The position numbers and the translations under genes were made by a program. Positions 6,203 through 36,727 of a stretch of 64,000 nt of DNA are shown piece by piece. How positions within the stretch are numbered: the first letter of the stretch is position 1; each line of letters opens with the position of its first letter. Under the pieces are notes generated by a model. It saw only the letters and a list, made by a program, of their open reading frames with translations. It was not told where the DNA came from and searched no databases. Source of the DNA: Bacteroidales bacterium (GTDB lineage: Bacteria; Bacteroidota; Bacteroidia; Bacteroidales; UBA7960); contig PWON01000040.1 in NCBI GenBank assembly GCA_003557385.1, positions 17,677 through 81,676 of the forward strand, written 5' to 3'.

Positions 6203-6207
6203 ACCAA

Positions 6208-7920: not shown

Positions 7921-7931
7921 TCGTTTAAAAA

Positions 7932-8489: not shown

Positions 8490-8580
8490 TTCAACATCCT
8501 GCCCGCCAAAACCCAGGCAAGCATCCGGGAATAAACCAGTCAAACGACCAGGTATATTTATCCGGCCTGCCCGCTCATGA

Positions 8581-8808
8581 TCACATCCCCAGATACTTCA
8601 TCAGTTCATATACCAGAAATACAGGCCATACAATTGCTTTCAGAACCCCAAGCACCCCGCCCCAGAATGATACGGCAGTAGCAATGTAATAAATGACTGC
8701 CCCGATAAAACCCATGCCGTAAATCACATTTTGCTGAGTATTTTTATGGATTTCACGTACGGGTGCTTTTGAAGCCTGTTGGGCGTTTGTTTTTTCTTCC
8801 ATCTCCAA
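8581..8808 (-). CDS. Small two-helix membrane protein, function unknown
   Basis: 75-aa ORF with a polar N-terminus followed by two clear hydrophobic helices (GMGFIGAVIYYIATAVSFWGGVLGVLKAIVWPVFLVY). No family recognised. Confidence 0.5.
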   Translation of the reverse strand: MEMEEKTNAQQASKAPVREIHKNTQQNVIYGMGFIGAVIYYIATAVSFWGGVLGVLKAIVWPVFLVYELMKYLGM

Positions 8809-8839
8809 TAATGTTTAAGTTTAAAGGTTCAGATTGACA

Positions 8840-9694: not shown

Positions 9695-9717
9695 GATGCC
9701 AAAACCTTCCGGCCTTT

Positions 9718-11748: not shown

Positions 11749-11784
11749 GATGATGTTTTATTTAAATGGATTTTGCTAAAGATT

Positions 11785-21110: not shown

Positions 21111-22190
21111 ATGAAAAAAACCTTTCCCGTACTGTTAATGGCTGTCTTGATAGCCGCCATCATATCGGTGATGGTAGTGCGTCTGCCCTATAACGTTCGC
21201 GGAAAAGGAATGGTAAAGCCCTTGCAGGAGTGGGGATTATATAAATCTTCAGATGGTACCCTGGTAAATATTCTGGAAAATTACCTCCACGGCAGCATAC
21301 ATGAATACAAAGTGCTTGAATTCCAGCGTGGCGATATGGTGTCTTTTTTGTTTAATGAGGCGTTGATCCAGGATGCAATCATACAACAAGGGGATACCAT
21401 TGCCTGGATCATGTCGCACGACCTGGACATGCGCATGGTGGAAATGCACGGAGAGATGCTTTATCAGGAAGCCCTCCTTGAGGTTTACCTCACGGGCGAA
21501 AAACCCGAAGCCATCCGCATGGCACTGGATGAAGTGGAACTTGCCCGCCAGGAATTGACCACACAAGAGAAACTGACCGGCAGAATAGAAAACCTATATC
21601 AACAAGACCTTGTATCACGGCAGGAATATGAATTGTCAATGAATGACCTGCGGGTTAAACAGTATGCACTGGAGATTGCCCAATCCAATTACCGCGCATT
21701 GCTTGCGGGTGAAAAAGAAGAAGAACTGGGTGTGATCCGTTCACGCATTGCCTCCCTCAACGACCAGATCAGTCAACTGGCAAAACAAAAGGAAGCCATG
21801 AATATTTTATCGCCCATTTCGGGACATGTCATCCGCCAGCAGGAATTCGGCGAAACCTCATCTGACCAGGTGATACGTGTGGCAGACATGTCATCCTTCC
21901 TGGTATTTGTACCGGTCGACATTCATGAAAAAAACTACATTCAAACCGGACAGCAGGTGCGCATCCGCGCCAACAACCGTCATCCTGAAATCATTGGCAA
22001 GGTTGTTGGTATTGACAATGCAGTACAATTGATAAACCGGCGGCCGAAAATCTTCGTTTCGGTATTGACCGGAAATCCGGCGGCGGCTGACCTTTTGCCA
22101 AACATGATCGTGGATGCCCGGATCACGACCGATACGGTACTGTTAAAAGATTACCTGCTCCGCCAGTCGAGGGTGGTTTACCAGAACTGA
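21111..22190 (+). CDS. HlyD-family membrane-fusion (periplasmic adaptor) protein, no cognate transporter adjacent
   Basis: 359 aa with a single N-terminal anchor (FPVLLMAVLIAAIISVMVV), a long coiled-coil middle and a C-terminal beta-barrel-like region (ILSPISGHVI...). Confidence 0.7.
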   Translation: MKKTFPVLLMAVLIAAIISVMVVRLPYNVRGKGMVKPLQEWGLYKSSDGTLVNILENYLHGSIHEYKVLEFQRGDMVSFLFNEALIQDAIIQQGDTIAWIMSHDLDMRMVEMHGEMLYQEALLEVYLTGEKPEAIRMALDEVELARQELTTQEKLTGRIENLYQQDLVSRQEYELSMNDLRVKQYALEIAQSNYRALLAGEKEEELGVIRSRIASLNDQISQLAKQKEAMNILSPISGHVIRQQEFGETSSDQVIRVADMSSFLVFVPVDIHEKNYIQTGQQVRIRANNRHPEIIGKVVGIDNAVQLINRRPKIFVSVLTGNPAAADLLPNMIVDARITTDTVLLKDYLLRQSRVVYQN

Positions 22191-22197
22191 TGATTGT

Positions 22198-22941
22198 ATG
22201 TTACGATATGAACGAAAATATTTGGTACCCAATTACCTCCTGAACGACCTGAGAAGCCGGGTAAGAGGGTTTGTCCGTGAAGACCTGTACGCCACCACCA
22301 ATGGAAACGGTTTGCCACAATATTCCGTCCGGTCAATATATTTTGACACCCCCGACCTTGTCAACTATCATGAAAAGATAGAGGGCCTGCAGCAAAGGCG
22401 CAAACTCCGGGTCAGGGCATACAATACGAACAAAAACGACAAACCGGTGATCCTGGAGATCAAGCGTAAATTTGGCAACAGGATAAAAAAACACAGGGCA
22501 CCGGTAGCCTTCAGCAACTTGCAAAAGTTATTAGATACCGGGGATTTAAACACCTACATTGATTTTGCAAGTGTGGAAAACCCAAAGCTTTGCCTGGATG
22601 ATGCAAAACGGTTCTTTTTTCATTACAAGCTCCGGTCTTTCTCTCCCACAGTTCTGGTAACTTACGAAAGAGAGGCCTATAACGGTAAAATTAATGCCGG
22701 TACCAGGATCACCTTCGATAAAAATATCCGAAGCCGGAATTATCCCAGCCTCGACGAACTCTACTCAGAAGAAGACCTGCGTTTTTTGTTTAAGAGCCAC
22801 TTTATCATGGAAATAAAATATTTTGAAAACAAGATGCCGGGCTGGGCCAGGAATATCGTGCATGATTTCAAACTACGCAACGAAGCCCTCTCCAAATATG
22901 TGATCGGTTTTGATGTCAATAAAACATTTGCACACTATTAA
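22198..22941 (+). CDS. VTC-domain protein (polyphosphate-polymerase-like triphosphate tunnel fold)
   Basis: 247 aa starting MLRYERKYLVP. Alternating charged strand motifs YERKY, VILEIKRKF and FIMEIKYF are typical of VTC/CYTH tunnel enzymes. It starts 7 nt after the HlyD-like stop. Confidence 0.75.
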   Translation: MLRYERKYLVPNYLLNDLRSRVRGFVREDLYATTNGNGLPQYSVRSIYFDTPDLVNYHEKIEGLQQRRKLRVRAYNTNKNDKPVILEIKRKFGNRIKKHRAPVAFSNLQKLLDTGDLNTYIDFASVENPKLCLDDAKRFFFHYKLRSFSPTVLVTYEREAYNGKINAGTRITFDKNIRSRNYPSLDELYSEEDLRFLFKSHFIMEIKYFENKMPGWARNIVHDFKLRNEALSKYVIGFDVNKTFAHY

Positions 22942-22944
22942 TCA

Positions 22945-23637
22945 TTGATTGAAAACAACGCCATGGCCAGTGACTTTGCAGACATATTCACCTTATCGGT
23001 AAGCCTCAGGGATGTTGTATTCAATCTCCTGGTGGCCCTGTTTTGTGGCATCATTATCTCCCTGTTATACCGGTTCACATACAAGGGTCTGAATTACTCC
23101 TCCTCCTTTGCGGTGTCCATGATCATGCTGACCATGATCACGTCGATCGTCATCATGGTGATCGGGAACAACCTGGCGCGTGCTTTTGGCATGGTGGGGG
23201 CCATGTCAATTATCCGTTTCCGGACTGCCGTGAAAGATGCCACCGACATCATGTTCATATTTTTTTCTCTGACCATTGGGCTGGCGGCTGGGGTCAAAAT
23301 GTATGCCGTGGCCATCTTTGGCACCTTGTTCATTAGTTTTATTTTTTTGATTATCAGCCAGTTTAATTTTGGCTTGGCCACAAGGAAGGAATACCTTCTG
23401 CAAATTCTAATGTCCACCGATGATGTAACGGGTGAGCAAGCAGCAAAGGTTATCCGGTCATACTGCAGGCGCTACAAACTGGTCAATGTAAAAGCCCTGG
23501 GGGAAGAAGGCAGCGAACTCATGGAGTTCTCCTATCACGTGTTCCTTGCAAGTGAAGAAAAAGGCAATCAAATGACCCGGGAACTGAAAAAGATTTCACA
23601 GGTAAAGAATGTCAACCTGTTCTTTGATGAAAATTAG
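22945..23637 (+). CDS. DUF4956 family membrane protein
   Basis: 230 aa with four to five hydrophobic helices, the motif GAMSIIRFRTAVKDATD and a soluble ~80-aa tail. It starts 3 nt after the VTC stop. Confidence 0.7.
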   Translation: MIENNAMASDFADIFTLSVSLRDVVFNLLVALFCGIIISLLYRFTYKGLNYSSSFAVSMIMLTMITSIVIMVIGNNLARAFGMVGAMSIIRFRTAVKDATDIMFIFFSLTIGLAAGVKMYAVAIFGTLFISFIFLIISQFNFGLATRKEYLLQILMSTDDVTGEQAAKVIRSYCRRYKLVNVKALGEEGSELMEFSYHVFLASEEKGNQMTRELKKISQVKNVNLFFDEN

Positions 23638-26600
23638 TATTTCTACACTTTTTATGCGTTACTATATCCGGTATAGCCGTTCTTTTGCAGCAATATTCCT
23701 GATCTTATTCTTGTTCCTTGTCATTCCATCTCCGGGCCTTACAGCCAATCAGGATCAAGACAGTCTTCAGATTCAATCCCCTGTTTTTTCGCACAAGGGA
23801 GGTTTTTTTAGCGAACCCTTTAACTTATTGCTTGAAACGGAACACACCGGCACTTACAACTATAAGGTGGAAAAAACCGGTTATCAATCCGTACATGGTG
23901 AAGTCAATATTGTTGACCAAGATGTGGACATTTTGGTTACCCTTCAGGCACAGGGTAACAAGGAAAATACATTCGATTTGTCGCCTGAAAAAGCCTCAGC
24001 GAAATCTTTTCAGGTTACGTTTCAGGTCGATATGATCGATTCCCCTTACCAGTCGGGCGATGTGGTATATATCAGTGGCACCATGGCCGACCCGCAATGG
24101 CCCGAACCGGGATCCAGCGATGACATGATCCTGGAGCCACTGGATGAGGAGAACAATATATTCGGGATCACTTTCCAACTGGCACCCGGAAATTATGCCT
24201 ACAAATATTTCCTGAATGCAGGTTGGGGAGGCGGCGAATGGGGCGGTGACCCGAACAGGGTGGTTTCGGTCTACGGACCTGCAACCTTTCATGATGTCTG
24301 GGGTGTAATTGACCCGGTTGATGAGCCGGACGATCCGGTAACATATTCGGTAACATTTGTGGTAAACGACCAGGATGGCCTGTCCATTGATGATGCCACC
24401 GTCACTTTTGACGGTACGGTGTATCCCCAGGGTATTTACCAGATTGAAGATGTAATACCTGCAGCCGTCATACGCTATACTACCGATGGCAGCATTCCCG
24501 GCAGGAACAGTCCTGTTTATGACTCCCCGGTCGCGATTACCGACCGTAGCGGCGATCCCAATGTCATCTCAATGATCCCAACAAACAACATCGGTCCCGG
24601 ACACGTATATAACGAACACTGGCAGGAACCGGCTGGTGAAATATTCAAGATCAACACCATCAGGGCAAGGGCATTTTTACCCAATGGCTATGGTGGCCAG
24701 GCAGCCACTCATAGCTATCTGGTGCATGAAAGCGGTAACCAGCGCTATTCAATGCCGCTGATCTCCATCAATGCCCACGCCGGTGCCTTTTTCGATGCCG
24801 ACACAGGCATATACGTCCACGGCAATCACAACAATTATTTCCAGCGCGGAGAAGAATGGGAGCGCCTGGTCCACCTGGAGTTTTTTGAAAGCAACGGGAA
24901 CCTGGCATTTTCGCAAGAGATGGGAGCACGCATACACGGGGGTACCAGCCGGAACCGACCCAGGAAATCACTTCGCATGTATGCCCGCTCCGATTACGGC
25001 ACCACATGGGTGGATTACCCCCTTTTTCCCAACAAAGAAATTCACCGTTACAAGCGCTTTCTTTTGCGTAACAGCGGAAACGACTGGGGTGACGCTATTA
25101 TTAGGGATGCTTTCATGCAATCATTGTTTAAAGGGTTTGGGCTCGACATGCAATACTCAAGGCCAGCTATCGTATTTATCAATGGTGAGTACTGGGGGGT
25201 CCATAACATTCGAGACAGGCTCGACAACCGGTATATTCAGACGCATTATGGCCTGGATGACGAAATGGATTACACCATCCTGGAAAGACACGGCGAATTG
25301 GACAGGGGTAATCCGGCTGGTGTCCAGCATTACTGGGACATGCTTGATTTCCTTGAAAGCCCTGGTGTTGCTGACCCGGAAAACTATGCAGAAATAAAAA
25401 CCCGCATGGATGTCGGCAACTTCATCAATTACCAGATCGGCCAAATCTATGTGATGAACACCGACTGGCCGGGCAACAACATTCAATACTGGCGTTACTA
25501 TACAGACACCTATGACCCCAATGCGCCTTTTGGATTGGACGGGCGCTGGCGATGGCAGGTGTTTGACCTTGATTTCGGCTTTGGATTAAACTTTGATTAT
25601 GTAACGGGCGTACAGGAAGGTCCCGCCCACAATACCCTGGCCTTTGCACTTGAACCAAACGGACCTGACTGGCCCAATCCTCCCTGGTCAACTTTTATTT
25701 TACGAAAACTGATGGAGAACCAAAATTTCCAATATCAGTTTATTGCCCGTTTTGCCGATTTATTGAATACGGATTTTAAGGCATCATATGTATTGCAACA
25801 ACTTGAGTCATGGCGCGAATTGTATTTGCCTGAAATGCCGGAACACATCCATCGGTGGCGCATGCCCGACGGAATGGATCACTGGGAAGCGGAATTGGCG
25901 GTCATGCGTGACTTCGCCACAAGACGGCCCGGATATATGCGTCAATACCTTGCCGAAGAATTTGGCCTTGGAGAAGAAACCAACCTCCATGTTTCCCTGG
26001 TAAACCCTACACAGGGCAGCGTCCGGGTAAATACAACAGAAATAGGTACAGAGGGACAGCCATGGACAGGCGTATATTTCAAGAACATGGAGATTCAACT
26101 GCAGGCCCTACCCGGTCCGGGTCACCGCTTCAGTCATTGGGATGGCCTGGAGGACACCTTGTCACCCATAACCGGTTTTACCCTGGAAGAAGAAACCAGC
26201 GTAACAGCCTATTTTCAGGACGCGCTCTTGCATTACTGGCATTTCAACAACCTGCCTGACGGACACCTGGAGATGGTAGAAGCCGACTACAGTGCATCGG
26301 GTGCGGCCCACATAACTTATCCTGGTACAGGTAACGGATATATGGACCGCACTGATGGTACGCTCCTTAACGCACACCAAGGTTATACGGCAGGTTATGG
26401 CCTGAGGGTGCGTAATCCTTCCGACACCCGTGAGTTACTCATTCAGGCTCCCTCTGTAGGCTACGAAGAGCTGATCTTTTCTTTTGCATCTCACAGAACA
26501 ACCAATGGGGCCAGGCAACAGGAATTATATTATTCGCCTGATGACGGACAAACCTGGACACAATTGGGAGATGCCTATGACATTGAGCCTGAGTTCCAGT

Positions 26601-27823
26601 TGTACACATTTGACCTCAGGCACCTGGACGAGGTAAATGACAATCCCGGTCTGCAATTTAAAATAGTATTCACAGGGCCGGAGGCTTCCGGACCGGACGG
26701 CAACAACCGCTTTGATAATGTGGTACTGTCCGGAACAGCCATAAACCTTACCATAAATAAAACCAATCCTCCTGCTGCATTTATGGACGAAACCTATTTG
26801 GGACATTATTTTTCTGCCTCAGGAGGTTCGCCACCCTATACTTTTGAAATTACCAATGGCAGTATCCCTCCGGGAATGCACCTGTCATCCGGCGGACATC
26901 TTTCCGGAACGCCCGCTGATCATGGTTTTTTTGAATTCACCGTAACAGTAAGCGACCAGGAGGGGGCCCAGGATGCCCACACCTACGAACTGAATGTAGA
27001 ACATAAATCTGTGATTTATTACTGGCATTTTAATGATCTGCCTGAGGGGACACTGTATAACGTGAAGGCCGATTATTACATCACAGACCATCCGGCAACC
27101 ATAAGCTATCCCGGTACCGGAAACGGATACATGGATCGTACCGATGGAACACTGCTCAATGCCAGATTCAATGCAGGAGCCGGTTACGGCTTGCGGGTCA
27201 GAAATCCATCAAACACACGGGAATTGATCTTTGACCTTTCATCAAGGGGATATGAACAGCTGGAGTTTTCATTTGCCCTGCACAGGACCAGCAACGGGGC
27301 CAGGCAACAGGAACTGTATTATTCTGCCGACGGTGGCATCCATTGGAACCTGGTTGCATACACCTACAATATCGGCACAAGTTTTGACGTCTATAGTTAT
27401 GACCTTTCGGACTTTGCAGCGGCAAATGACAATCCTGACCTGAAATTGAAAATTTTGTTTACCGGGCCGGAAGCTTCAGGCACTTCCGGGAATAACCGGT
27501 TCGACAATGTGGTATTGCACGGCACAAGGAAAGTTGTGTCCGTGGAAGATAACAAAGCTGCAGGTTTCGGACTGGGGCAAAACCATCCGAACCCCTTCCG
27601 TGGGAAAACGACCATTCCTTTTACCACCCGGCAGGAGGGGCATGTAAGAATAGACGTATTCAACCTTTACGGGATGCATGTGGCCAATCTGGCAGACGGT
27701 TTTCACGGGCCAGGCCAACACCAGGTAGTATTCGACGGCAGTACTTTGCCTGGAGGTGTATATATTATACGCCTGCAAAGTTCAGGCCAACATGAAAGCA
27801 GACAAATGATCCTGGTCAGGTAA
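23609..27823 (+). CDS. Giant secreted CotH-kinase-family protein 1 (CBM-like insert, CotH core, two HYWHFN modules, Ig-like domain, T9SS C-terminal domain)
   Basis: 1404-aa ORF (alternative ATG at 23627) with a signal peptide. CotH core motifs are LLRNSGNDW, INGEYWGVHN, NTDWPGNNIQYWRY and FDLDFGFG. An InlB-B-repeat-like segment (GHRFSHWDG) follows, then two ~170-aa repeats ending GNNRFDNVVL. The C-terminal sorting domain reads NHPNPFRGKTTIPF...GVYIIRL. Confidence 0.85.
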   Translation: MSTCSLMKISISTLFMRYYIRYSRSFAAIFLILFLFLVIPSPGLTANQDQDSLQIQSPVFSHKGGFFSEPFNLLLETEHTGTYNYKVEKTGYQSVHGEVNIVDQDVDILVTLQAQGNKENTFDLSPEKASAKSFQVTFQVDMIDSPYQSGDVVYISGTMADPQWPEPGSSDDMILEPLDEENNIFGITFQLAPGNYAYKYFLNAGWGGGEWGGDPNRVVSVYGPATFHDVWGVIDPVDEPDDPVTYSVTFVVNDQDGLSIDDATVTFDGTVYPQGIYQIEDVIPAAVIRYTTDGSIPGRNSPVYDSPVAITDRSGDPNVISMIPTNNIGPGHVYNEHWQEPAGEIFKINTIRARAFLPNGYGGQAATHSYLVHESGNQRYSMPLISINAHAGAFFDADTGIYVHGNHNNYFQRGEEWERLVHLEFFESNGNLAFSQEMGARIHGGTSRNRPRKSLRMYARSDYGTTWVDYPLFPNKEIHRYKRFLLRNSGNDWGDAIIRDAFMQSLFKGFGLDMQYSRPAIVFINGEYWGVHNIRDRLDNRYIQTHYGLDDEMDYTILERHGELDRGNPAGVQHYWDMLDFLESPGVADPENYAEIKTRMDVGNFINYQIGQIYVMNTDWPGNNIQYWRYYTDTYDPNAPFGLDGRWRWQVFDLDFGFGLNFDYVTGVQEGPAHNTLAFALEPNGPDWPNPPWSTFILRKLMENQNFQYQFIARFADLLNTDFKASYVLQQLESWRELYLPEMPEHIHRWRMPDGMDHWEAELAVMRDFATRRPGYMRQYLAEEFGLGEETNLHVSLVNPTQGSVRVNTTEIGTEGQPWTGVYFKNMEIQLQALPGPGHRFSHWDGLEDTLSPITGFTLEEETSVTAYFQDALLHYWHFNNLPDGHLEMVEADYSASGAAHITYPGTGNGYMDRTDGTLLNAHQGYTAGYGLRVRNPSDTRELLIQAPSVGYEELIFSFASHRTTNGARQQELYYSPDDGQTWTQLGDAYDIEPEFQLYTFDLRHLDEVNDNPGLQFKIVFTGPEASGPDGNNRFDNVVLSGTAINLTINKTNPPAAFMDETYLGHYFSASGGSPPYTFEITNGSIPPGMHLSSGGHLSGTPADHGFFEFTVTVSDQEGAQDAHTYELNVEHKSVIYYWHFNDLPEGTLYNVKADYYITDHPATISYPGTGNGYMDRTDGTLLNARFNAGAGYGLRVRNPSNTRELIFDLSSRGYEQLEFSFALHRTSNGARQQELYYSADGGIHWNLVAYTYNIGTSFDVYSYDLSDFAAANDNPDLKLKILFTGPEASGTSGNNRFDNVVLHGTRKVVSVEDNKAAGFGLGQNHPNPFRGKTTIPFTTRQEGHVRIDVFNLYGMHVANLADGFHGPGQHQVVFDGSTLPGGVYIIRLQSSGQHESRQMILVR

Positions 27824-27834
27824 AAATCTGCCTG

Positions 27835-30800
27835 TCAGGGAACCAAAATCTTGGCGTATTTCCCCTCATCGGTTATCAAAAAATAAACCCCGCCGGCCAG
27901 GTCAGGTATGCTGATCTTTCTGGCACCTTGTTCAGACAATACAAGCCGCCCATAGACATCATACAGTCGCACATTATAGGCCTCCATAAAATATAAGACC
28001 CCATCAGTCACAGGATTGGGAAAAACAAACAGTTCATTTTTTTCAATATATTCAGGTGCAACCACACCGCGCAAAACTACATTGTCGAAACGGTTGTTGC
28101 CCGATGTATTGTCTGATTCGGGGCCCAAAAACAGTATCCGCAACAACAAATCCGGGTTATCTGCGGAATAGGCATAATTATACAGATTGAATGTCTTCAG
28201 ATTATAGTCGGTGGTGATGCGGTACTGGGCTCCCACACTGGCCCAGTTCTTTCCATTATCGGGAGAATATTGCAGCAACTGCCAGCGTGCACCATTGTTT
28301 GTCCGGTGCACCGCAAAAGAGAATTGCAGGTAATCAAAGCCATCGGAAGGGACTTTGAACCACAATTCACGTTGCCCGGAGGGATTCCTTACCCGGAGTC
28401 CGCTCCCCGCCGAAGCGTCCGACCAGGCATTCAGCCCGGTGCCCTCTACCTTGTCCATATATCCATCGCCCGTGCCATGATAGTAAACAAAGGCCCTTTG
28501 TTCTGTTGCACTATAGTCGGAAAATACCGTATCCAGGGTTGTACCGGGCAGGTTGTTGAAATGCCAGTAGTGTATCAGCTGATCATCGAATATTTTCAAC
28601 ACATAGGTTTGGCGTGCATGGGCTTGTCTGGCATCTGTCACCTCTGCCTCAAACACATAAGAACCTGTATATTTGGGAGTACCGGATATGGTGCCGTCTG
28701 CAGACAACTCCAGGCCTTGTGGCAGGCGGCCACCCACCTTCTCAAACCGGTAGGGGCTTTCACCGTAGCGGGCCATAAGCGAATAGGAATAATGTTCACG
28801 AATCCTGCCTGCAGGCGGATTGTGCTCGCTTAGTGTTAAAGGGGCGACCTTCAGCACCACATTGTCAAACCGGTTATTGCCCGAAGTATTGGCCGCCGCA
28901 TCATCGGTAAACAGTATTCGAATAAGCAGGTCCGGATTGTCGTTGGTTTCAGGATATTCGCTTAAGTCAAAGGCGTGCCTGACATAGTCAGTGGTAACAT
29001 GCACTTGCGGGGCAATGGGCTGCCAGCTGACCCCGTTATCGGGTGAAAAACAAACGGACTGAATCCGGGCGCCATTGTTTGTGCGACGCACAGCATAGGA
29101 AAAACCGAGATGATCATGGCCTGTACTGGGAACCCTGAACAGCAATGAACGCGTATTGGAGGGATTGCGCACCCTCAGGCCATAACCCGGCAGAACACCC
29201 ATATGTGCATTGAGCCCGGTCCCCTCCGAAACCCTGTCCATATACCCCGGGCCACTGCCCGGATAGGTGATCAGCGCCTCATCGGGATGCAGGCTGTAGT
29301 CCGCATTGACACTCTCCACAAAATCATCGTCCGGAAGGTCGTTGAAATGCCAGTAATGAATAATGCCGTCCCAGAAATGCGCTGTCAGGGTCGTGTCATG
29401 CTCCAGGGTGATGGTTGTCCGGGCAGGGGTTCCTTCCGGGAGACCTTCCCAATGGCTGAATACCATGCCGGGTTCAGGAATGGCTTCAATTTCCAGGGGT
29501 ACTCCGTGAAAATAAGTGCCGGTCCACTCACCCGGATCATCAACGCCCGGCAAACCGTCTTTTACCTGAATGGTGTTGATCCGGATACTTCCCCTGACGG
29601 GATTGGTTTTCAGGGTCACGTTACTGGTGTCGGGAAGCCCGAAGACATCCATCAATTCACTTTTTTGTCTGGATGGGCGACGGTTGAGAAAATCGCGCAT
29701 ATGATCCACATCGGGAATGGAGTTCCTGTTCCAGCGCCCCTGATCAATGGGTGCTTCATGACTGACCGCCTGGTGGCGTTTTTCCAAAACATCCAGGGCA
29801 TGGGCAGGAAGAAAATGGGTATTCATCAGATCTGCCATCCGGTTGATGAAACGGTGCCTGAACCATTCATTATCAGAGAGATTCAGAATGATAGCCGACG
29901 GTTCATTTTCCGGATCAAATACATCGGTAAGCAGGTCGTAATTATAGTCTGAAAATCCGTTGTCAAAATCCCAAATCATCATGCGCCATTTTCCGTCCTG
30001 GTATGGCTTTTGGGATCTCTCGCGAACTCTCCAGAAACGGAAGTGCTTGGCACCCACATGATCACGTCCGCCCCAGTCGCTATTTGCCAGGTAAATAAAA
30101 GAGAGGTAATAATCGATGTAGCTGTCCATGTCCATTTGGCCTGCAGCCATGTCAAACATGGTATCATCCGACATGTCGTTTTGTGTGACCAAACGATAGA
30201 ACATGTTAAAATACTCAAGGTCCTCAGGAACCCCTTCTTCCAATTGGCCGGTTCCGGTTATCTTATACGGGGAGTCTATGATGATGACATTATCCGGGTC
30301 TATATCGTATTCATATGCGATATGATAGCGGTCCTGGCGGTCGCGGAAATTCATCAGTCCCCAGTACACCCCGTTTACAAAGTGCACGGCCGGTTCTGTC
30401 CGCTGTATGCCCACATGGGTGTTTTGCATAAGGTCTTGTGCCACGACATCCCGTATGATACGGTTTCCGTTGCCTCCCGTCCGGAACAAAAGCCGTTTGA
30501 ATATGTCCGGGTCCTGGCCATCAATCGTTCGGCCCTGGCCGGGAAAAAAGATGTAGTGTATTTCGTTGTCAGTATCATAGATGTTTCGGGCATAAACCCG
30601 CAGGGATTTTTTGGGGTTTGAACGGCTCCAGCCGCCATGGATGCGCATGCCCAAATTTTGGCGCAGCAGTGCCGATCCTCCTGCATCAAATATTTCAAGA
30701 TGCATTTCCCGCTCCCATCCGAAGCCCCTGTATCCCCAGTTTGCCGGGGCAGCAGGCCAGATCTCCCTGTCAGGGTGTTCTTTCCTCCAATTGTCAAACG

Positions 30801-31833
30801 CTTTGCCTGCAACATATATACCACGGTTATACTCAAACAGCGAGGTATCGGGAATGGCGACAGACACTACAGGCAAATCAAAACGATCAAAGATGCCTTC
30901 TCCCGGCAAATAGGTATGTGTGGCCACCTTGCCCGGCAAATAGCCTTCCCTGTATGCCCTTGCCCTTACAACCACGCCTTCGGCAACCTCATCCTGGGGT
31001 ACCAGGGGCGTTACGGTAAAAGAGGTGTTGATCAGATGAATTCCGTCAGGATTGCCCGTCTGATCCAGAATGTGAATAGGATCCGAATATTTGTAGGTTC
31101 TGAAAGACCTTTCCAGAAACGGGCCAAAGGGAGTTCCGGGATATTGCGGATACCGGTTTTTATATTGAAAAGTGGTTCCTCCCACGTTGGCAGAATCAGG
31201 CACGGATCCATCAAGGGTATAATAGATCATTGTTTCATCCCCGGCCGACAACTCGAGAAAAAAGTCGGACGCATAAAACCCTCCCGGATGTGAAAAATCG
31301 GGAGGCCCCTGTATTCCTTCCCATGGATTCGTAGTATTTGCAGTTCCCGGTGTAGGCTCATCAAAAAAATACCAGCTGCTTACATCACCCGGAATGCGCC
31401 CAATGGTTATCCCGGTTGGGATATTGACCGGCTCCAACTCATCGACAATGGTTCCATCGGGGGATGTAAGCAATACCTCCTCCCCTGCCGAACTGATAGA
31501 AAAAATGGTGTGCAGCGGCTTTCCAGGCACCCTGCGGTTTTTTCCCGAAGCCCATACCAGCAAATACTCCCCTGCACCAATGACCACCTCAGGAAAACAC
31601 CATCTGAACAGATCCCCATAATCGTCCGAAAGGCCAAAACCTTCCAGGTTAATATCCTCTTCACCATAATTGTAAAGTTCAATCCAGTCTTCATGATCCC
31701 CGTCTTCATCGGCTATGGTACCGGCATTGGAGGCCATCACCTCATTGATGATAATATCTTGCCCCCGGCCCTGATTAGACACGATCAACACCATAAAAAA
31801 AATCAATATGAACCTCCGATCAGGAAAAGTCAT
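27835..31833 (-). CDS. Giant secreted CotH-kinase-family protein 2 (LTD, CotH core, two HYWHFN modules, Ig-like domain, T9SS C-terminal domain)
   Basis: The ORF runs to 31857 (GTG). The first ATG, at 31833, overlaps the upstream stop as ATGA. The lamin-tail-like domain reads IIINEVMASN..EDWIELYN..GFGLSDD. The CotH core has LFRTGGNGN, VNGVYWGLMN and a divergent NSDWGGRDHVGAKHFRFWR / WDFDNGF. The T9SS tail reads FPNPVTDG...GVYFLIT. Confidence 0.85.
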   Translation of the reverse strand: MTFPDRRFILIFFMVLIVSNQGRGQDIIINEVMASNAGTIADEDGDHEDWIELYNYGEEDINLEGFGLSDDYGDLFRWCFPEVVIGAGEYLLVWASGKNRRVPGKPLHTIFSISSAGEEVLLTSPDGTIVDELEPVNIPTGITIGRIPGDVSSWYFFDEPTPGTANTTNPWEGIQGPPDFSHPGGFYASDFFLELSAGDETMIYYTLDGSVPDSANVGGTTFQYKNRYPQYPGTPFGPFLERSFRTYKYSDPIHILDQTGNPDGIHLINTSFTVTPLVPQDEVAEGVVVRARAYREGYLPGKVATHTYLPGEGIFDRFDLPVVSVAIPDTSLFEYNRGIYVAGKAFDNWRKEHPDREIWPAAPANWGYRGFGWEREMHLEIFDAGGSALLRQNLGMRIHGGWSRSNPKKSLRVYARNIYDTDNEIHYIFFPGQGRTIDGQDPDIFKRLLFRTGGNGNRIIRDVVAQDLMQNTHVGIQRTEPAVHFVNGVYWGLMNFRDRQDRYHIAYEYDIDPDNVIIIDSPYKITGTGQLEEGVPEDLEYFNMFYRLVTQNDMSDDTMFDMAAGQMDMDSYIDYYLSFIYLANSDWGGRDHVGAKHFRFWRVRERSQKPYQDGKWRMMIWDFDNGFSDYNYDLLTDVFDPENEPSAIILNLSDNEWFRHRFINRMADLMNTHFLPAHALDVLEKRHQAVSHEAPIDQGRWNRNSIPDVDHMRDFLNRRPSRQKSELMDVFGLPDTSNVTLKTNPVRGSIRINTIQVKDGLPGVDDPGEWTGTYFHGVPLEIEAIPEPGMVFSHWEGLPEGTPARTTITLEHDTTLTAHFWDGIIHYWHFNDLPDDDFVESVNADYSLHPDEALITYPGSGPGYMDRVSEGTGLNAHMGVLPGYGLRVRNPSNTRSLLFRVPSTGHDHLGFSYAVRRTNNGARIQSVCFSPDNGVSWQPIAPQVHVTTDYVRHAFDLSEYPETNDNPDLLIRILFTDDAAANTSGNNRFDNVVLKVAPLTLSEHNPPAGRIREHYSYSLMARYGESPYRFEKVGGRLPQGLELSADGTISGTPKYTGSYVFEAEVTDARQAHARQTYVLKIFDDQLIHYWHFNNLPGTTLDTVFSDYSATEQRAFVYYHGTGDGYMDKVEGTGLNAWSDASAGSGLRVRNPSGQRELWFKVPSDGFDYLQFSFAVHRTNNGARWQLLQYSPDNGKNWASVGAQYRITTDYNLKTFNLYNYAYSADNPDLLLRILFLGPESDNTSGNNRFDNVVLRGVVAPEYIEKNELFVFPNPVTDGVLYFMEAYNVRLYDVYGRLVLSEQGARKISIPDLAGGVYFLITDEGKYAKILVP

Positions 31834-34800
31834 CGCATCACCTGTAATTTTTTCCACACCGTGGCATTGTCTGTCCGAATAACCACAATATACATGCCGT
31901 TCCGGAAAGCCTGTGTATTGATGTTGTGACTAAAGGCATTCACGGCCTGGTGTTGGTATACTTCCTGGCCGGAGAGGTTGTAGATGTGAACGCTTTTGAT
32001 GGTCTCAAGCATTGCAATGCTGGTCATTTCATTGGCAGGATTTGGATACAGAACAGCCTGATCTTTGTAATCGTCAATAATCTCGGCATTCAGGGAAAAA
32101 CTTACCTGAAGCTGATGATTGTCGTGGATGTTTGTCATTAAAAATTTTGCACTGCCTTCTCCTGCCGGCTCAATCTCTCCCAAAACGCTCTCGCCATCCA
32201 GGGTGAGATCGCCGATGTGATGATTCTCGAAGGGAATGATCAAAAATTCAATTTCTGCACCCTGGTAGACGGGGATCTTGCCCGAAGGGAAAATACTGCC
32301 ATGGGCACCCGATAGGGCATGTACAACAAATGACCCTACAGATATCCCATCCAGGCTGATGTTATTGAAGGTGACCCGGTTGCCGGCATCTGCATGCATT
32401 TGATCTCCGTCAAAGCGGATCCGGACTTTAAAATGTGGGTTGTTTCCTGTTTCCGGGATTTGACTGAAATCAATTTCATACAGCTGATAGACCTGCTGGA
32501 GGGGCAATTGATGCTCCGAAAGGCCTGCCGTGGTCCATACTTCATGTTCCTCCCCGGTCTGATAATCGATCAGGAGCATTTCTGCAGCCCCTTCATCCAT
32601 GACAGCGAACCGCAGGATGATGTCTGAAAATCCGGTGGTCGGCAAATGCAGGATCATGGTATTTTCCCTGCCGTTATCTGCAAAAGGCTGCCTGACCTGC
32701 AAGCCCCGCATATTGGCCTGGTGATAGGGAATGCCGTGATTGCCTTCAGGACGGTAGTTGATGGCCGTGGGCCGATTGCGACGTTCCATTGATGCCTTGC
32801 GCCACAAGGGGTGGGACGCATCAAAAGGGTAACCTTCCAGGGAACTGTGGTACTCAATCATCCCGTCGTCGCGGACGCCGTAAAAAGCCTCCAGTGTCAT
32901 TAAGGGTGTATCGTTTGGCATACTTGTATCAAACAGCCAGTAATGGATCAGCACCGGGGTGTCAATTTTTTCAAAATGAGCGGTTAACTGGATGTCCTGG
33001 TCTATATCCACAGACAGTGTTGGTTCGTTTGAATAAAAAGAACCTTCCCAGTGCGAAAATTCAAAACCCGGCACCGCCACAGCACTTACCTCGATGGGAA
33101 CCCCGGCAAAATATCTGCCCTGCCATGGAAATGGATATTCCGGCACACCCGGAGTAGTTGGTTTGATATCCACGGTATTGATCCGGATATGGCCCTTAAG
33201 CTGGTTGGATACATCCACCGTCAACCGGTACATGCCATCCAGGTCAAAATATTCAAGGATATGCTGTCTTTGATATTGAGGGCGTTTTTCTGCAAATTCA
33301 AGCATGATGTCCACATGTTCAAGCCATTGCCCATATCCATCAGGATATCCCCAACGGGCATAGTGTTCGGCAATTTCAGGTGCAATGGCCTCTTGCATAC
33401 GCTGAATGACATCCACCGTCCTGTCAGGGTGAAAAGCCGTATTCAACTGATCCGCAAAACGGTTGATAAACTGGTTGCGGAATGTTTGGTTCTTCAGCAT
33501 GCTTCTGAGAAGGAAAGTGGACCAGGGCGGATTGGGCCATTCATGACCTTCTTCGGTGGTGGCAAATTCAAGGGTGTTGTGCTTATATGCCCGGTTCTCC
33601 CCCACCAGGTCAACAAGGCCAAAGCCAAAATCCATATCGAAAAGCATCCAGCGCCACCTCCCATCGTGCCCGGGAGGTGCGCCGGCCACATAAGTGCTGG
33701 TGCGCAGCCGCCAGAAATCGATATTGTTTCCCGGCCAGTCGGTATTGTCGGCAAAAATATTGGCAATCTGGTAATCCATGAAGTTCTGCTCATCGATGCG
33801 TGTCAGCACCCAGGCATAATGCGCATCGCTTTCCACACCGTGGTTTTCAATGTATTGAATGGTTGCCTTGAAGTGCAGGTTGTCCCCCTCCTTTACCTCA
33901 TCCTTTCCTGTAAGCAAATCGATGTTTTCTTCATCCACGCCGTAGTTCCGGTGCAGATAATGTTTGTCATACCGCTCACGGATATTCTGCAACCCCCAGT
34001 ATTCGCCGTTTAGAAACAGGATGGCCGGACGATAGGCCTGGGTATCAAAACGCATATGCTGCAAAATATGCTGAATGGCCGCATCGCGGAACATGGTTCG
34101 TGAAGAATAGTCGGGCCGCCAGATATCTGTCGGAAAATCATTGCCGGAATTTCTTAATATCAGGCGTTTATACGACTGTTGTTGGGTTTCGAAGAAATCA
34201 TGGGTAAGGTGGGAGTTGCCGTACCGGTTACGGGCATAAAGCCTCAGTGATTTCATGGGAAACGACCGGGTGGCGCCTCCGTGTATGCGCAGGCCGATAT
34301 CCTGTGCAAGCACCCGTTCTTTCCCGGGATGCTCAAACAATTCAATATGGGCGGGATATTCCCATTCAACACCCCGGCGGTGGAAATTGCCGTAAAAGGG
34401 CCAGGCAAACACTTCGCCGGGATTGTCGATGCGCCACTGGTCGGCATCCACTCCAGGGGTATAAATGCCCTGGTGATAATCAAAGAGGTAGTTTTCCTGA
34501 ACATTGATGGCAATGACCGGCAAATCAAAACGCGCATCGCCCTCCGGAGAAATAAAATAGCTGTGGCTGATGATCTCGCCGGGCAAGTAGCCTTCCTTGA
34601 ATGCGCGGGCACGCACTACCGTACCTTTATACACCGGATCATCAGGCATGTATAGTGGCGGATGGATGGTGCCGGATATGCGGGTCAGTTTGTCTGCATC
34701 CTGCGAACGGTCTTCAATGGCAATGCCACCATCAAACACTTCTGATATGAAGCTGTGTTCAAGAAATTCACCAAACGGGTCACCGGGGAAAAAAGGATAG

Positions 34801-35516
34801 TCGTTTTTATATTGATAAGTGATGCCCCCAATATGCTGGATGCATGGTTCGGAGCCATCTCTCGTATATACAATGATGACCTCAGGATCGGCATGATGTA
34901 TCTCCAATTGAAAACCACCGGTATAAAAACCACCCGGAACGGAAAAAACCGGGGGCTCCAGGATACCTGCATAACCTTCAGTGGTATTTGACATCCCGGG
35001 CGTGGGATCACTGAAAAAGTACCACGCATGTCCGCCATCGGGTTGCCGCCCATAAGAAATATCAGTCGGAATGGGAATTGGAGCCAGTTCATCTGCCCTG
35101 GTGCCATCCGGGTGGGTGATCAGCACCTCCTCTCCGGCTGCACTGATACTGAAATTTGTATGCAAGGGCTGTGCCGGGTTGCTCCGGTTTTTCACGGAAG
35201 CCCAGATCAGCAGGAATGCGCCCGCTTCGATGGTGATATCCGGGATCACCCACCTGTATGGATTGTCGTAATCATCCGAAAGGCCATAACCTGCCAGATT
35301 TATGGGTGTGTCACCGGCATTATAAAGCTCTATCCAGTCTTCATAATCACCGTCCTCGTCGGCAATGGTCACGGCATTGGAAGCCATAATCTCATTGATG
35401 ACAACCTGTTGTGACCAGGCCCGCGGCGAGGCAAAGATGATCATGCCCAGAAACAATACAGACCACCAGCAGCGATAAGCCACTCTATTTATTCCAACAA
35501 GCCCCGAACCAATCAT
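31830..35516 (-). CDS. Giant secreted CotH-kinase-family protein 3 (LTD, CotH core, one divergent HYW module, InlB-B-repeat-like domain, T9SS C-terminal domain)
   Basis: The ORF runs to 35534 (TTG); the first ATG is at 35516. The LTD reads VVINEIMASN..EDWIELYN..GYGLSDD. CotH motifs are ILRNSGNDF, LNGEYWGLQN, NTDWPGNNIDFWRL and FDMDFGFG. The T9SS tail reads YPNPANEM...GMYIVVI. Confidence 0.85.
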   Translation of the reverse strand: MIGSGLVGINRVAYRCWWSVLFLGMIIFASPRAWSQQVVINEIMASNAVTIADEDGDYEDWIELYNAGDTPINLAGYGLSDDYDNPYRWVIPDITIEAGAFLLIWASVKNRSNPAQPLHTNFSISAAGEEVLITHPDGTRADELAPIPIPTDISYGRQPDGGHAWYFFSDPTPGMSNTTEGYAGILEPPVFSVPGGFYTGGFQLEIHHADPEVIIVYTRDGSEPCIQHIGGITYQYKNDYPFFPGDPFGEFLEHSFISEVFDGGIAIEDRSQDADKLTRISGTIHPPLYMPDDPVYKGTVVRARAFKEGYLPGEIISHSYFISPEGDARFDLPVIAINVQENYLFDYHQGIYTPGVDADQWRIDNPGEVFAWPFYGNFHRRGVEWEYPAHIELFEHPGKERVLAQDIGLRIHGGATRSFPMKSLRLYARNRYGNSHLTHDFFETQQQSYKRLILRNSGNDFPTDIWRPDYSSRTMFRDAAIQHILQHMRFDTQAYRPAILFLNGEYWGLQNIRERYDKHYLHRNYGVDEENIDLLTGKDEVKEGDNLHFKATIQYIENHGVESDAHYAWVLTRIDEQNFMDYQIANIFADNTDWPGNNIDFWRLRTSTYVAGAPPGHDGRWRWMLFDMDFGFGLVDLVGENRAYKHNTLEFATTEEGHEWPNPPWSTFLLRSMLKNQTFRNQFINRFADQLNTAFHPDRTVDVIQRMQEAIAPEIAEHYARWGYPDGYGQWLEHVDIMLEFAEKRPQYQRQHILEYFDLDGMYRLTVDVSNQLKGHIRINTVDIKPTTPGVPEYPFPWQGRYFAGVPIEVSAVAVPGFEFSHWEGSFYSNEPTLSVDIDQDIQLTAHFEKIDTPVLIHYWLFDTSMPNDTPLMTLEAFYGVRDDGMIEYHSSLEGYPFDASHPLWRKASMERRNRPTAINYRPEGNHGIPYHQANMRGLQVRQPFADNGRENTMILHLPTTGFSDIILRFAVMDEGAAEMLLIDYQTGEEHEVWTTAGLSEHQLPLQQVYQLYEIDFSQIPETGNNPHFKVRIRFDGDQMHADAGNRVTFNNISLDGISVGSFVVHALSGAHGSIFPSGKIPVYQGAEIEFLIIPFENHHIGDLTLDGESVLGEIEPAGEGSAKFLMTNIHDNHQLQVSFSLNAEIIDDYKDQAVLYPNPANEMTSIAMLETIKSVHIYNLSGQEVYQHQAVNAFSHNINTQAFRNGMYIVVIRTDNATVWKKLQVMR

Positions 35517-35596
35517 TTGCCAATTACTTAACAACTACAAGCCATGATCAATAGCTACTTAAAACACACATGCCAACAGGTTGCTCCGGAAAAAAC

Positions 35597-36193
35597 CTAG
35601 CTGCAAAGCATCTCCTTCAGCGCCTCATACACCTTATGCACAGGCAAACCCATCACATTGTGGTAAGATCCCTGAATGCCGGTAATGCCAATGTATCCTA
35701 TCCACTCCTGGATGCCATATGCACCTGCCTTGTCATAGGGAGCAAAATGTTCAATGTAATACGATATCTCTTCGGCAGCCAGCTTTCGGAATGTAACCAG
35801 CGAATGGTCGCAAAACAGCCTCTCGTCGTCACCATGGCGAATGCACACCCCTGTATACACTTCATGGGTGCTTCCCGACAATTCACTCAACATGTTAAAA
35901 GCCTGTTCTGCCCCGGCCGGTTTGTTAATGATCTTTCCGTGCTGCACCACAATGGTGTCGGCCGTGATCACCACCACCCCGGGCCTTTTCAGTTCATCTC
36001 CGAAGCAGCTTATTTTTTGCCGGCACAAATGCGCCACCACACCGGCAGGAGGCAAATGTTCCGGATACAATTCGGCGGTGGGCCTGGCCATGATCCGGAA
36101 AGGGATCCCGGCACCTTCCAGCAATGCTTTTCGACGGGGAGACTGGGAGGCCAGGATGATGTCGTATTGTGTAAACCTTTCAAGACAGTACAT
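35597..36193 (-). CDS. maf: Maf family nucleoside-triphosphate pyrophosphatase
   Basis: 198 aa with the motifs ILASQSPRRKALL, ITADTIV and AGAYGIQ. Confidence 0.88.
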   Translation of the reverse strand: MYCLERFTQYDIILASQSPRRKALLEGAGIPFRIMARPTAELYPEHLPPAGVVAHLCRQKISCFGDELKRPGVVVITADTIVVQHGKIINKPAGAEQAFNMLSELSGSTHEVYTGVCIRHGDDERLFCDHSLVTFRKLAAEEISYYIEHFAPYDKAGAYGIQEWIGYIGITGIQGSYHNVMGLPVHKVYEALKEMLCS

Positions 36194-36205
36194 ACAAACG
36201 TTTCA

Positions 36206-36727
36206 TTACCAGAGAAAGCCATCGTCGTCAAACCAGGTGCCATGTACTTTCATCACCTGTTCTATTACATCGCGCACACAACCATTGCCGCCCTCAAATG
36301 AGGAGATATATTTGGAAACAGCCTTGATCTCCTCCACGGCATTGGCCGGACAGGCGGGCACTCCCACCTTATTCATGACCTTGAAATCAGGGATGTCATC
36401 ACCCATATACAAAACCCTGACAGGATCCAGTTTATTATCTGACAACAATTTTTCAAAAAGTTTCAGCTTGTTTCCCACGCCCAGATACACCTCATCAATC
36501 CCCAAAAGCTGAAAGCGATGCCTGACAGATTCACAACTGCCACCTGAAATAATGATGATTTGGTAGCCTTTTCTGACTGCCAGCTGCAGCGCATAACCAT
36601 CTTTTACATTCATGCTGCGAAGCATTTCTCCACCCGGGCTCAGTAAAACAATGCCGCTCGTCATCACCCCATCCACATCAAAAATAAAGGTGTTGATGTT
36701 CGACAAAAGTTGCTTGTAGTTCTTCAT
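36206..36727 (-). CDS. kdsC: 3-deoxy-D-manno-octulosonate-8-phosphate phosphatase (HAD, KdsC type)
   Basis: 173 aa with the motifs FIFDVDGVMT, DGYALQ, IISGG and YMGDDIPD. Confidence 0.85.
   Translation of the reverse strand: MKNYKQLLSNINTFIFDVDGVMTSGIVLLSPGGEMLRSMNVKDGYALQLAVRKGYQIIIISGGSCESVRHRFQLLGIDEVYLGVGNKLKLFEKLLSDNKLDPVRVLYMGDDIPDFKVMNKVGVPACPANAVEEIKAVSKYISSFEGGNGCVRDVIEQVMKVHGTWFDDDGFLW

Follow-up and report, generated by a model that had tools for sequence, protein, structure and literature searches.

In Gram-positive pel operons, cotH, a polyphosphate polymerase gene, DUF4956 and DUF4832 are accessory genes, and operons carrying the cotH/VTC/DUF4956 set are found in streptococci, clostridia and bifidobacteria (Whitfield et al., bioRxiv 10.1101/768473). 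Lepp et al. reported a VTC protein, a membrane protein annotated as "tubulin/FtsZ" and CotH in the C. perfringens locus NELoc-2 (CP4_0460-0465; PMC2879425). The three corresponding proteins of S. intermedius, SIR_1592-1594, have been modelled and each gene deleted by authors who assumed that the polyphosphate is cytoplasmic and who saw the trio only in pel operons (bioRxiv 10.1101/2024.04.20.589940). Here we analyse a locus from a Bacteroidales bacterium (assembly GCA_003557385.1), located on a 64,000-nucleotide stretch of contig PWON01000040.1 referred to below as the window, in which the genes of a HlyD-like periplasmic adaptor, a VTC protein and a DUF4956 membrane protein are accompanied by three CotH genes. 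This locus is a diderm variant of the known but uncharacterised Gram-positive gene set.

The two sets share the same three adjacent families, a secreted CotH, a cytoplasmic VTC protein with its catalytic residues and an MgtC-like DUF4956 protein with an ACT domain. They differ in that the window has no pelDEADAFG genes, no DUF4832 glycoside hydrolase and no other exopolysaccharide genes nearby, that Bacteroidota add a dedicated periplasmic adaptor which is universal there, and that the single Gram-positive CotH of ~470-570 aa is replaced in the window by three proteins of 1230-1400 aa with sorting domains of the type IX secretion system (T9SS). The original prediction, a reading of the sequence alone, had stated that no function was demonstrated for this gene combination. 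This stands, but the combination itself was already published for Gram-positive bacteria and its novelty was overstated. What is new is the adaptor-containing Bacteroidota triad with its conserved adaptor motif, the wide occurrence of the set outside pel loci, and a CotH arm of several paralogues delivered by the T9SS.

A scan of one genome per species yielded 80 Bacteroidota loci, which were annotated by phmmer and hmmsearch with the window proteins. An adaptor homologue lies beside the VTC gene in all 80 and a DUF4956 homologue in 79; in the exception the contig ends 18 nt further on. The three genes invariably run adaptor > VTC > DUF4956 on one strand, a few nucleotides apart. Any other neighbour family is shared by at most 15 of the ~80 loci, and the flanks consist of lineage-specific housekeeping blocks. 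Uncultured Bacteroidales from soda-lake sediments (CSSed, T3Sed and SL_3KL contigs) are the nearest relatives. Foremost among them is GCA_036681025.1, whose VTC protein is 96% identical to that of the window and whose genes, the three for CotH included, are arranged in the same order. Synteny extends well beyond this genome, to 80 Bacteroidota species for the triad and to other phyla for the VTC-DUF4956 pair.

A CotH core was found within 10 kb of the triad in 21 of the 80 loci. If only the 42 loci flanked by 4 kb or more at each end are counted, 13 have it, corresponding to 9/9 close relatives and 4/33 distant ones. Where CotH is present its distance to the triad is between -100 and +288 nt in all cases except one (20/21). 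CotH can lie downstream, on the same strand or convergent, or upstream, on the same strand or divergent, and these four different arrangements show that CotH has been assembled with the triad repeatedly. Assuming 20 CotH genes per 3000-gene genome and ignoring phylogenetic non-independence, the binomial probability of the immediate adjacencies is ~5e-20 for the 20 in 80 loci and ~2e-6 for the eight in 62 distant loci. Chance adjacency of the two arms was rejected on synteny. In close relatives the CotH-1 orthologue occupies the same position (gaps of -100 to +163 nt in 11). The convergent position of CotH-2 is shared by loci L001, L007, L010, L011, L020 and L093, a third CotH is found at the same position in L001 and L093, and an arrangement with at least two CotH genes is kept in L007, L010, L011, L012 and L020. 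Marinilabiliaceae bacterium ANBcel2 (L054), which can be cultivated, carries the triad together with one convergent CotH gene.

The reverse survey covered 79 metagenome loci picked for a window-type CotH core. A VTC gene, usually with DUF4956, lies directly beside CotH in 14 of these and none was found in 64. The orders include VTC > DUF4956 > CotH, DUF4956 > VTC > CotH and CotH > VTC > DUF4956, the VTC and DUF4956 genes being sometimes swapped. Since there are triad loci without CotH and CotH genes without VTC, adjacency is not a strict requirement for either: adaptor, VTC and DUF4956 form the obligate unit, and CotH is a strongly linked but facultative partner. CotH had initially been counted as part of the gene combination; its immediate adjacency does recur, but its role as a core member was overstated. 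Two further triad loci contain other neighbours. In L005 (JGI contig Ga0645779_00244, 11510-13408) a 632-aa protein without Pfam match follows the triad; it proved to be neither CotH-like nor Cthe_2159-like and may be another kind of partner. In Alkalitalea saponilacus (CP021904, L003), which has no adjacent CotH, a PPK2 gene (15886-16773) is located ~5 kb downstream of the triad.

Outside Bacteroidota, the VTC > DUF4956 pair is present in 6/6 Firmicutes and Actinobacteria matches obtained by tblastn (plasmids and chromids). In Planococcus maritimus the order is TIM-barrel-like > VTC > DUF4956 > CotH > 689-aa protein > HEAT > GT2 chitin-synthase-like, which equals that of C. perfringens NELoc-2 CP4_0459-0468. 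The gene upstream of the Planococcus VTC was considered as a counterpart of the adaptor and rejected (no similarity, TIM-barrel-like). An operon without an adaptor homologue is what would be expected there if the adaptor is a diderm-specific addition. In Pseudobutyrivibrio, CotH > VTC > DUF4956 lies within a cluster of glycosyltransferase, acyltransferase and pyruvyl-transferase genes, and in Enterococcus (L092, 7881-13008) VTC, DUF4956 and a two-component system precede CotH. The pair and a two-component system are followed by a Cthe_2159 beta-helix protein rather than CotH in Paenibacillus (L089, 5712-11353), and by a PLD/cardiolipin-synthase-like enzyme rather than CotH in Acetoanaerobium (L091, 5729-11042). 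OmpR-type two-component systems thus flank VTC > DUF4956 in 3/6 Gram-positive loci. A further locus, L124 (Ga0209467_1000084, 5429-12201), reads GH16 > GT2 synthase > VTC > DUF4956 > LTD-CotH > polysaccharide deacetylase, without adaptor; it is an exopolysaccharide-type operon holding the trio outside any pel locus. In another metagenome locus a dockerin-bearing CotH is linked to VTC. These loci contradict the occurrence of the trio in pel operons only.

The adaptor passes the Pfam cutoffs narrowly, with 30.4 bits for HlyD_D23 (cutoff 30) and 26.1 bits for HlyD_3 (cutoff 22.2). The NCBIfam models CzcB, HlyD, EmrA, DevB and RND_mfp match it with E-values of 1e-12 to 1e-6 and scores far under their cutoffs; judging from these scores it is a divergent family of its own. 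An AlphaFold2 (AF2) model was obtained from 39 homologues, with a mean predicted local distance difference test score (pLDDT) of 83.2. It comprises an N-terminal membrane helix (residues 4-22), beta domains, an alpha-hairpin of ~125 residues (103-229, with helices 103-128, 132-164, 170-199 and 202-229) and a beta-barrel. The top Foldseek matches are MacA (3fpp, E 1.8e-14) and EmrA (8zar, E 3e-13), followed by MexA, AcrA and ZneB. In the model, the tip between helices 132-164 and 170-199 carries an RxxxLxxxxxxS (RLS) motif. Across the 39 homologues its R and L are present in 39/39, and its third position is S in 27, A in 8 and P in 4. This motif is the TolC-binding interface of MacA, AcrA, MexA and HlyD, and the serine is its most permissive position (PMC3391258).

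On its predicted fold, therefore, the "HlyD-like" protein is a genuine periplasmic adaptor of the MacA/EmrA type, and by analogy its RLS motif suggests passage of a substrate through an outer-membrane duct. Both fold and motif strengthen the earlier proposal that this orphan adaptor may bridge the periplasm. The locus resembles MacAB-TolC, EmrAB-TolC and HlyBD-TolC in the adaptor fold, in the tip motif and in having the adaptor gene directly upstream of genes for inner-membrane components. It differs from these tripartite exporters in that the inner-membrane partner is not an ABC, MFS or RND protein, a tunnel polymerase stands in the place of the energising ATPase and the operon has no outer-membrane factor. 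No cognate ABC, MFS or RND transporter for the adaptor was found among the window open reading frames (ORFs) scanned. This adaptor with its TolC-docking motif provides the strongest new argument that the product of the VTC protein leaves the cytoplasm. A dedicated adaptor would make little sense for a purely cytoplasmic product, which counts for export and argues against the cytoplasmic polyphosphate assumed for S. intermedius.

The VTC protein matches PF09359 with 130.7 bits (cutoff 23) over model positions 2-231 of 235, which bears out its earlier identification. A PDB search with the single sequence gave no match and an exact look-up of the protein gave no identical record. A 19-sequence VTC profile, however, aligns to the catalytic domain of yeast Vtc4 (3g3q) with an E-value of 8e-8. 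All nine triphosphate/Mn ligands of Vtc4 are present: K7, R71, R73, K89, Y156, R158, E205, S232 and K233, equivalent in this order to K200, R264, R266, K281, Y359, R361, E426, S457 and K458. The N-terminal equivalences are taken from the Vtc4 profile alignment and the C-terminal ones from an alignment to Vtc3, in which "VMEIK...FSLY" against "ilEvK...alSKY" sets K233 at the K458 position. The nine ligands are invariant across 19 Bacteroidota VTC sequences, and the C-terminal ones are also found in three Firmicutes proteins. In the yeast VTC cryo-EM study K200, R264, R266, K281, R361, K458, S457 and Y359 are triphosphate ligands and E426 binds Mn; mutation showed that the synthesis of polyphosphate requires every one of the eight triphosphate ligands, and K458 is the sole ligand altered in the inactive Vtc2 and Vtc3 (I or L there). 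The possibility that the protein lacks the tunnel residues had been raised with the initial reading; all were found, and by its residues the window protein is Vtc4-like and of the active type.

The yeast complex couples the synthesis of polyphosphate to its translocation through an electropositive channel. The window shares with Vtc4/Vtc3/Vtc1 a tunnel domain with the same nine ligands and the combination of a cytoplasmic polymerase with a membrane component. In contrast to the yeast complex, the protein consists of the VTC domain only, without SPX, fused transmembrane domain or Vtc1-type subunit nearby; the membrane partner is MgtC-like and unrelated, the proposed target is the cell exterior and not the vacuole lumen, and a periplasmic adaptor is added. 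No N-terminal basic/hydrophobic signal-like segment is present. Although the literature treats VTC-type polyphosphate polymerases as eukaryotic and PPK as the bacterial type, the stand-alone bacterial VTC family is large (8955 clusters at 50% identity). The best 150 of these 8955 representatives are all stand-alone proteins of ~160-310 aa, and no VTC domain fused to membrane or SPX domains was found among them or among the 120 closest homologues.

The DUF4956 protein scores 53.4 bits against its Pfam family (cutoff 30.6). It also matches MgtC/SapB models below their thresholds, with 22.2 bits for Pfam MgtC (cutoff 31.4) and 34.3 bits for NF007431 (cutoff 214); the NCBIfam MgtC/SapB match has an E-value of 1.7e-8 over residues 77-225. 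From these matches it appears as an MgtC/SapB relative below the membership cutoffs. The AF2 model (pLDDT 68) shows five helices followed by a C-terminal beta-alpha-beta-beta-alpha-beta domain. Matches to this domain, each at E ~1e-3, are ACT domains and the C-domains of MgtC (2lqj and 7qa5), and S. intermedius SIR_1592 is likewise described as MgtC-like with an ACT domain (bioRxiv 10.1101/2024.04.20.589940). No solved structural analogue of the membrane domain was found, the C-terminal domain alone being matched, and weakly. The description as a membrane protein of 4-5 helices is supported by the five modelled helices but had left the ACT-like domain unmentioned.

A five-helix membrane domain, a C-terminal ACT-like domain and weak, near full-length model matches are thus shared with MgtC/SapB/YhiD, whereas scores far below the family cutoffs, a motif block of its own and an obligate VTC partner set DUF4956 apart. 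Within the triad it is the best conserved protein (59-92% identity in the 120 closest clusters) and the family is large, with >6600 clusters at 90% identity. It has an invariant 50-residue motif block of its own (GNNLARAFGMVGAMSIIRFRTAVKD; VIMVIGNNLARAFGMVGAMSIIRFRTAVKD..DIMFIFF.L.IGLAAGV), and R73, R85, R87 and K91 are invariant. Since it is unrelated to the Vtc1-type channel, its description as a membrane partner that takes the chain is an analogy only. In an iron-limitation transcriptome table of B. thetaiotaomicron, the DUF4956 and DUF2490 genes BT3498-BT3499 change together (-7.6 fold, P 0.175); the DUF2490 protein may be a different envelope partner of DUF4956 in Bacteroides.

The three CotH proteins match Pfam CotH with 176.9 (CotH-1), 115.0 (CotH-2) and 178.8 bits (CotH-3). 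CotH-1 is composed of CHB_HEX_C/Fn3_assoc, the CotH core, Flg_new_2, He_PIG and a T9SS type A C-terminal domain; CotH-2 of LTD, Fn3_assoc, the CotH core, Flg_new_2, He_PIG and a probable T9SS C-terminal domain; and CotH-3 of LTD, the CotH core, Flg_new_2 and a T9SS C-terminal domain. All three N-termini, read directly in the sequence, have a basic and then a hydrophobic stretch and are signal-peptide-like. The sorting domains score 29.2, 26.1 and 50.6 bits for CotH-1, -2 and -3 against Por_Secre_tail (cutoff 27, which CotH-2 misses by 0.9) and 26.3, 22.9 (borderline) and 44.9 bits against TIGR04183 (cutoff 23). The organisation claimed for all three (signal peptide, CotH core, T9SS domain) consequently holds for CotH-1 and CotH-3, the CotH-2 sorting domain being borderline. 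The T9SS proteins PorZ and GldH are present in relative L005. VTC-linked CotH proteins share a CHB_HEX_C/Fn3_assoc - CotH - Flg_new_2 core, to which are added, in the cases examined, lineage-specific extracellular modules (T9SS domain, dockerin, LRR or LTD). No paper linking CotH to the T9SS in bacteria was found in the searched literature.

A PDB search with the single CotH-1 core gave no match, a Bacteroidota-only profile (A2) did not reach the B. cereus structure 5jd9 and with the Planococcus CotH alone only the N-lobe aligned to it. The Bacteroidota cores are too distant from the Bacillus protein and a mixed profile is needed: A3, which adds three Firmicutes CotH sequences, aligns to B. 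cereus CotH (5jd9) over residues 53-357 with an E-value of 8.4e-18. In this alignment NTDWPGNN corresponds to QNFD224GFVHN and FD(L/M)DFGFG to PWD247YDATWG of B. cereus. LRNSGND pairs with LNSEFMD, and LIRNK with the next motif. Three of the motif pairs originally drawn with Bacillus CotH therefore stand, while LRNSGND = LIRNR was off register. The B. subtilis variants D228Q and D251A are catalytically dead (PMC7821199); as the 23-residue spacing is equal in both numberings, D228/D251 would correspond to B. cereus D224/D247 with a 4-residue offset. The 13 Bacteroidota CotH cores compared, the three window paralogues among them, show no variation at either aspartate or at the preceding asparagine, and on this alignment both catalytic aspartates are kept in all three.

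The window proteins and Bacillus CotH (5jd9/5jda) thus belong to the same Pfam family, with an alignable core and both catalytic aspartates. They differ in that the window proteins are T9SS-secreted and not assembled in a mother cell with ATP, that their host is non-spore-forming, and that they are 3-4x larger, with LTD, CHB_HEX_C/Fn3_assoc, Flg_new_2 and He_PIG modules. For Bacteroidales CotH no role in a spore coat would be expected.

The features of the locus are listed in Table 1. The ORF list of the window gives the six ORFs at the positions and with the spacings read initially, and gene order, gaps and convergent stops are all confirmed from the ORF coordinates. Adaptor and VTC genes are separated by 7 nt, VTC and DUF4956 by 3 nt. 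DUF4956 and CotH-1 overlap by 29 nt, or by 11 nt if CotH-1 begins at its codon-7 ATG. Since the start of CotH-1 overlaps the DUF4956 stop, CotH-1 belongs to the same operon. For DUF4956 the likelier start is the ATG at 22963, which gives the 224 aa annotated in L001, the 96%-identical relative. CotH-1 and CotH-2 converge with 11 nt between their stops. The ATGA overlap described between CotH-3 and CotH-2 exists if CotH-2 begins at its own ATG, which is the call in L001.

Table 1. Coordinates of the features of the locus (window numbering)
Feature	Position	Strand	Remarks
Periplasmic adaptor ("HlyD-like") gene	21111..22190	+	359 aa; Pfam HlyD_D23 and HlyD_3
RxxxLxxxxxxS (RLS) motif: R158, L162, S169	21582..21617	+	Predicted hairpin tip of the adaptor
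VTC protein, stand-alone triphosphate-tunnel domain	22198..22941	+	247 aa; Pfam VTC; predicted cytoplasmic, Vtc4-like (active type)
DUF4956 membrane protein	22945..23637	+	230 aa from TTG start; Pfam DUF4956
CotH-1	23609..27823	+	1404 aa; CotH core nt 24929-25939; T9SS type A C-terminal domain nt 27587-27811
CotH-2	27835..31857	-	1340 aa; 1332 aa from ATG at 31833; CotH core nt 29674-30645
CotH-3	31830..35534	-	1234 aa; CotH core nt 33273-34292
maf	35597-36193	-	Stops 62 nt upstream of CotH-3, same strand

The minus-strand CotH pair is not the isolated unit it had been taken for, given the proximity of maf on the same strand. The maf gene and a HAD (KdsC-like) gene (35597-36727, minus strand) lie directly upstream of CotH-3, and the minus-strand CotH arm may be read through from these housekeeping genes. 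A plus-strand ORF at 35570-36301 without family match is probably spurious. Housekeeping genes flank the locus: those for ComEC, LpxB, SurE and a Zn peptidase at one end, those for Maf, the HAD protein, DUF2520 and CcmF at the opposite end. The remaining ORFs that were scanned in the 64-kb window include no polyphosphate or exopolysaccharide gene and none of TolC-like or T9SS type. A scan for sigma-70 promoters and terminators gave counts at or below the shuffle expectation with a model unsuited to Bacteroidota, and was not used.

Elsewhere in the window, a trehalose cluster (50365-56533, minus strand) encodes an OtsA-OtsB fusion (GT20 and trehalose phosphatase), a GH65 phosphorylase and a third, HAD/beta-phosphoglucomutase-like protein fused to trehalose phosphatase; it fits the compatible-solute metabolism of a haloalkaline habitat. 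A DmsABC-type operon (2293-8489, plus strand) includes genes for a molybdopterin oxidoreductase, a 4Fe-4S subunit and a DmsC-like anchor, with a 570-aa NTPase-domain protein and a MobA-like cofactor transferase downstream. A 514-aa ORF without Pfam match (40130-41674, minus strand) adjoins a subtilase (S8) gene.

Starting from the family identities, the intact catalytic residues, the adaptor fold and motif, the operon structure and the conserved synteny observed here, we propose that adaptor > VTC > DUF4956 may constitute one envelope-spanning machine. The cytoplasmic Vtc4-type tunnel enzyme would polymerise phosphate from ATP and feed the growing chain into an inner-membrane oligomer of the MgtC-like DUF4956 protein, as Vtc4 does on the yeast channel. 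The MacA/EmrA-type adaptor would take the product across the periplasm to a TolC-type channel encoded elsewhere. The three T9SS-delivered CotH enzymes would then act at the cell surface on or with the exported polymer, most likely with polyphosphate as the donor, giving phosphorylated surface or matrix proteins or glycans where ATP is unavailable. We infer, as plausible, polyphosphate as the product, DUF4956 as the conduit, docking at the outer membrane and a chemical link to CotH. The interpretation given in the original prediction is to this extent partly supported and remains the leading hypothesis. Taken as a whole, the chain from synthesis and export by the triad to CotH acting on or with the polymer is possible rather than probable, and its use as phosphoryl donor by CotH is doubtful.

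Several points weigh against this proposal. CotH is missing within 10 kb in 59/80 triad loci and in 29/33 of the distant relatives with full flanks, and in the reverse survey most CotH genes sit away from any VTC gene. An outer-membrane factor gene was found neither among the window ORFs scanned nor as a recurrent neighbour of the triad. DUF4956 is kin to MgtC, known as a regulator and not a channel, and not to the Vtc1 transmembrane domain, and its model is only moderately confident and a monomer without a pore. We know of no protein kinase that uses polyphosphate as donor. The searched literature contained no biochemical evidence for any bacterial VTC-domain protein, and the S. intermedius deletions had no Pel or aggregation phenotype (bioRxiv 10.1101/2024.04.20.589940).

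The main rival, which we consider rather unlikely, keeps the export of polyphosphate by the triad and takes it as the end product, the CotH proteins being co-located as parts of the same surface layer without using polyphosphate as donor. In Gram-positive bacteria this shared layer may be exopolysaccharide. The polymer could serve in soda lakes as a cation- and pH-buffering polyanion, in mineral nucleation or as matrix material, and the CotH proteins could be, for example, ATP-dependent or non-catalytic matrix or adhesin proteins or exopolysaccharide glycan kinases. Such a division of labour accounts for the fact that in most species no CotH adjoins the triad, as in the cultured Alkalitalea saponilacus, Alkaliflexus imshenetskii and Natronoflexus pectinivorans, for the embedding of the set in exopolysaccharide operons (GT2 synthase, deacetylase, GH16, pel, pyruvyl transferases), seen in Gram-positive loci and in others, and for the carbohydrate-associated CHB_HEX_C and Fn3_assoc modules of CotH. 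It is harder to reconcile with the tight CotH-VTC-DUF4956 adjacency, re-invented across phyla, which suggests more than a shared location. Furthermore, there are no exopolysaccharide genes near the locus in the window, and a purely structural CotH is hard to square with the conservation of its catalytic aspartates. A purely intracellular system appears improbable. Here VTC and DUF4956 would serve phosphate, Mg2+ or energy homeostasis at the cytoplasmic membrane with intracellular polyphosphate and no export, the MgtC-like protein regulating or anchoring the polymerase and the adaptor serving an unlinked transporter or a structural role. The matches of DUF4956 to MgtC/SapB models, its ACT-like cytoplasmic domain, the action of Salmonella MgtC on phosphate metabolism via PhoR, the assumption made for S. 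intermedius and the OmpR-type systems beside half of the Gram-positive pairs all point in this direction. It would nevertheless leave unexplained both the adaptor gene that closely precedes VTC, at a distance of a few nucleotides, in all 80 Bacteroidota loci and whose product carries a TolC-docking motif, and the recurrent link to secreted CotH.

It is quite improbable that the VTC protein is no polymerase and instead hydrolyses or cyclises triphosphate (as a tripolyphosphatase or a nucleotide cyclase, or in small-phosphoanhydride synthesis), the triad exporting a small molecule or signalling with it. The triphosphate-tunnel superfamily has diverse activities (PMC9582702), and the bacterial protein, like the best 150 representatives, stands alone without the SPX and transmembrane parts of Vtc4. 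However, its best Pfam match is specifically VTC, and it has the full Vtc4 ligand set, including the equivalent of K458 which separates active Vtc4 from inactive Vtc2/Vtc3. A highly improbable reading is that the two arms are unrelated, CotH-2 and CotH-3 belonging to a minus-strand maf/kdsC-like housekeeping unit that adjoins the operon by chance. The short distance from maf to CotH-3 is in keeping with it, while the three-CotH arrangement kept in two relatives and that with at least two CotH in five others, the overlap of CotH-1 with DUF4956 and the adjacency statistics all argue against chance. Returning to the proposed export chain, its fullest form, in which the triad is an unrecognised trans-envelope machine, with a tunnel polymerase in place of the transporter ATPase and polymerisation driving polyphosphate through an MgtC-like inner-membrane pore and an adaptor/TolC duct, and the CotH proteins are the first polyphosphate-dependent extracellular kinases, is distinctly unlikely.

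The locus is a real, conserved and uncharacterised system. To our knowledge, extracellular or surface polyphosphate has been reported for several bacteria without any known export route, and secreted kinase-fold proteins such as CotH have no obvious phosphoryl donor outside the cell. An adaptor with a TolC-docking motif fixed beside VTC and DUF4956 makes both questions, polyphosphate export and the CotH donor, directly testable with a three-gene construct. If the proposal is correct, it would provide a role for this MgtC-like family and for accessory genes of Gram-positive pel and necrotic-enteritis loci, and the use of polyphosphate by CotH would solve the problem of phosphorylation outside the cell, where ATP is scarce.

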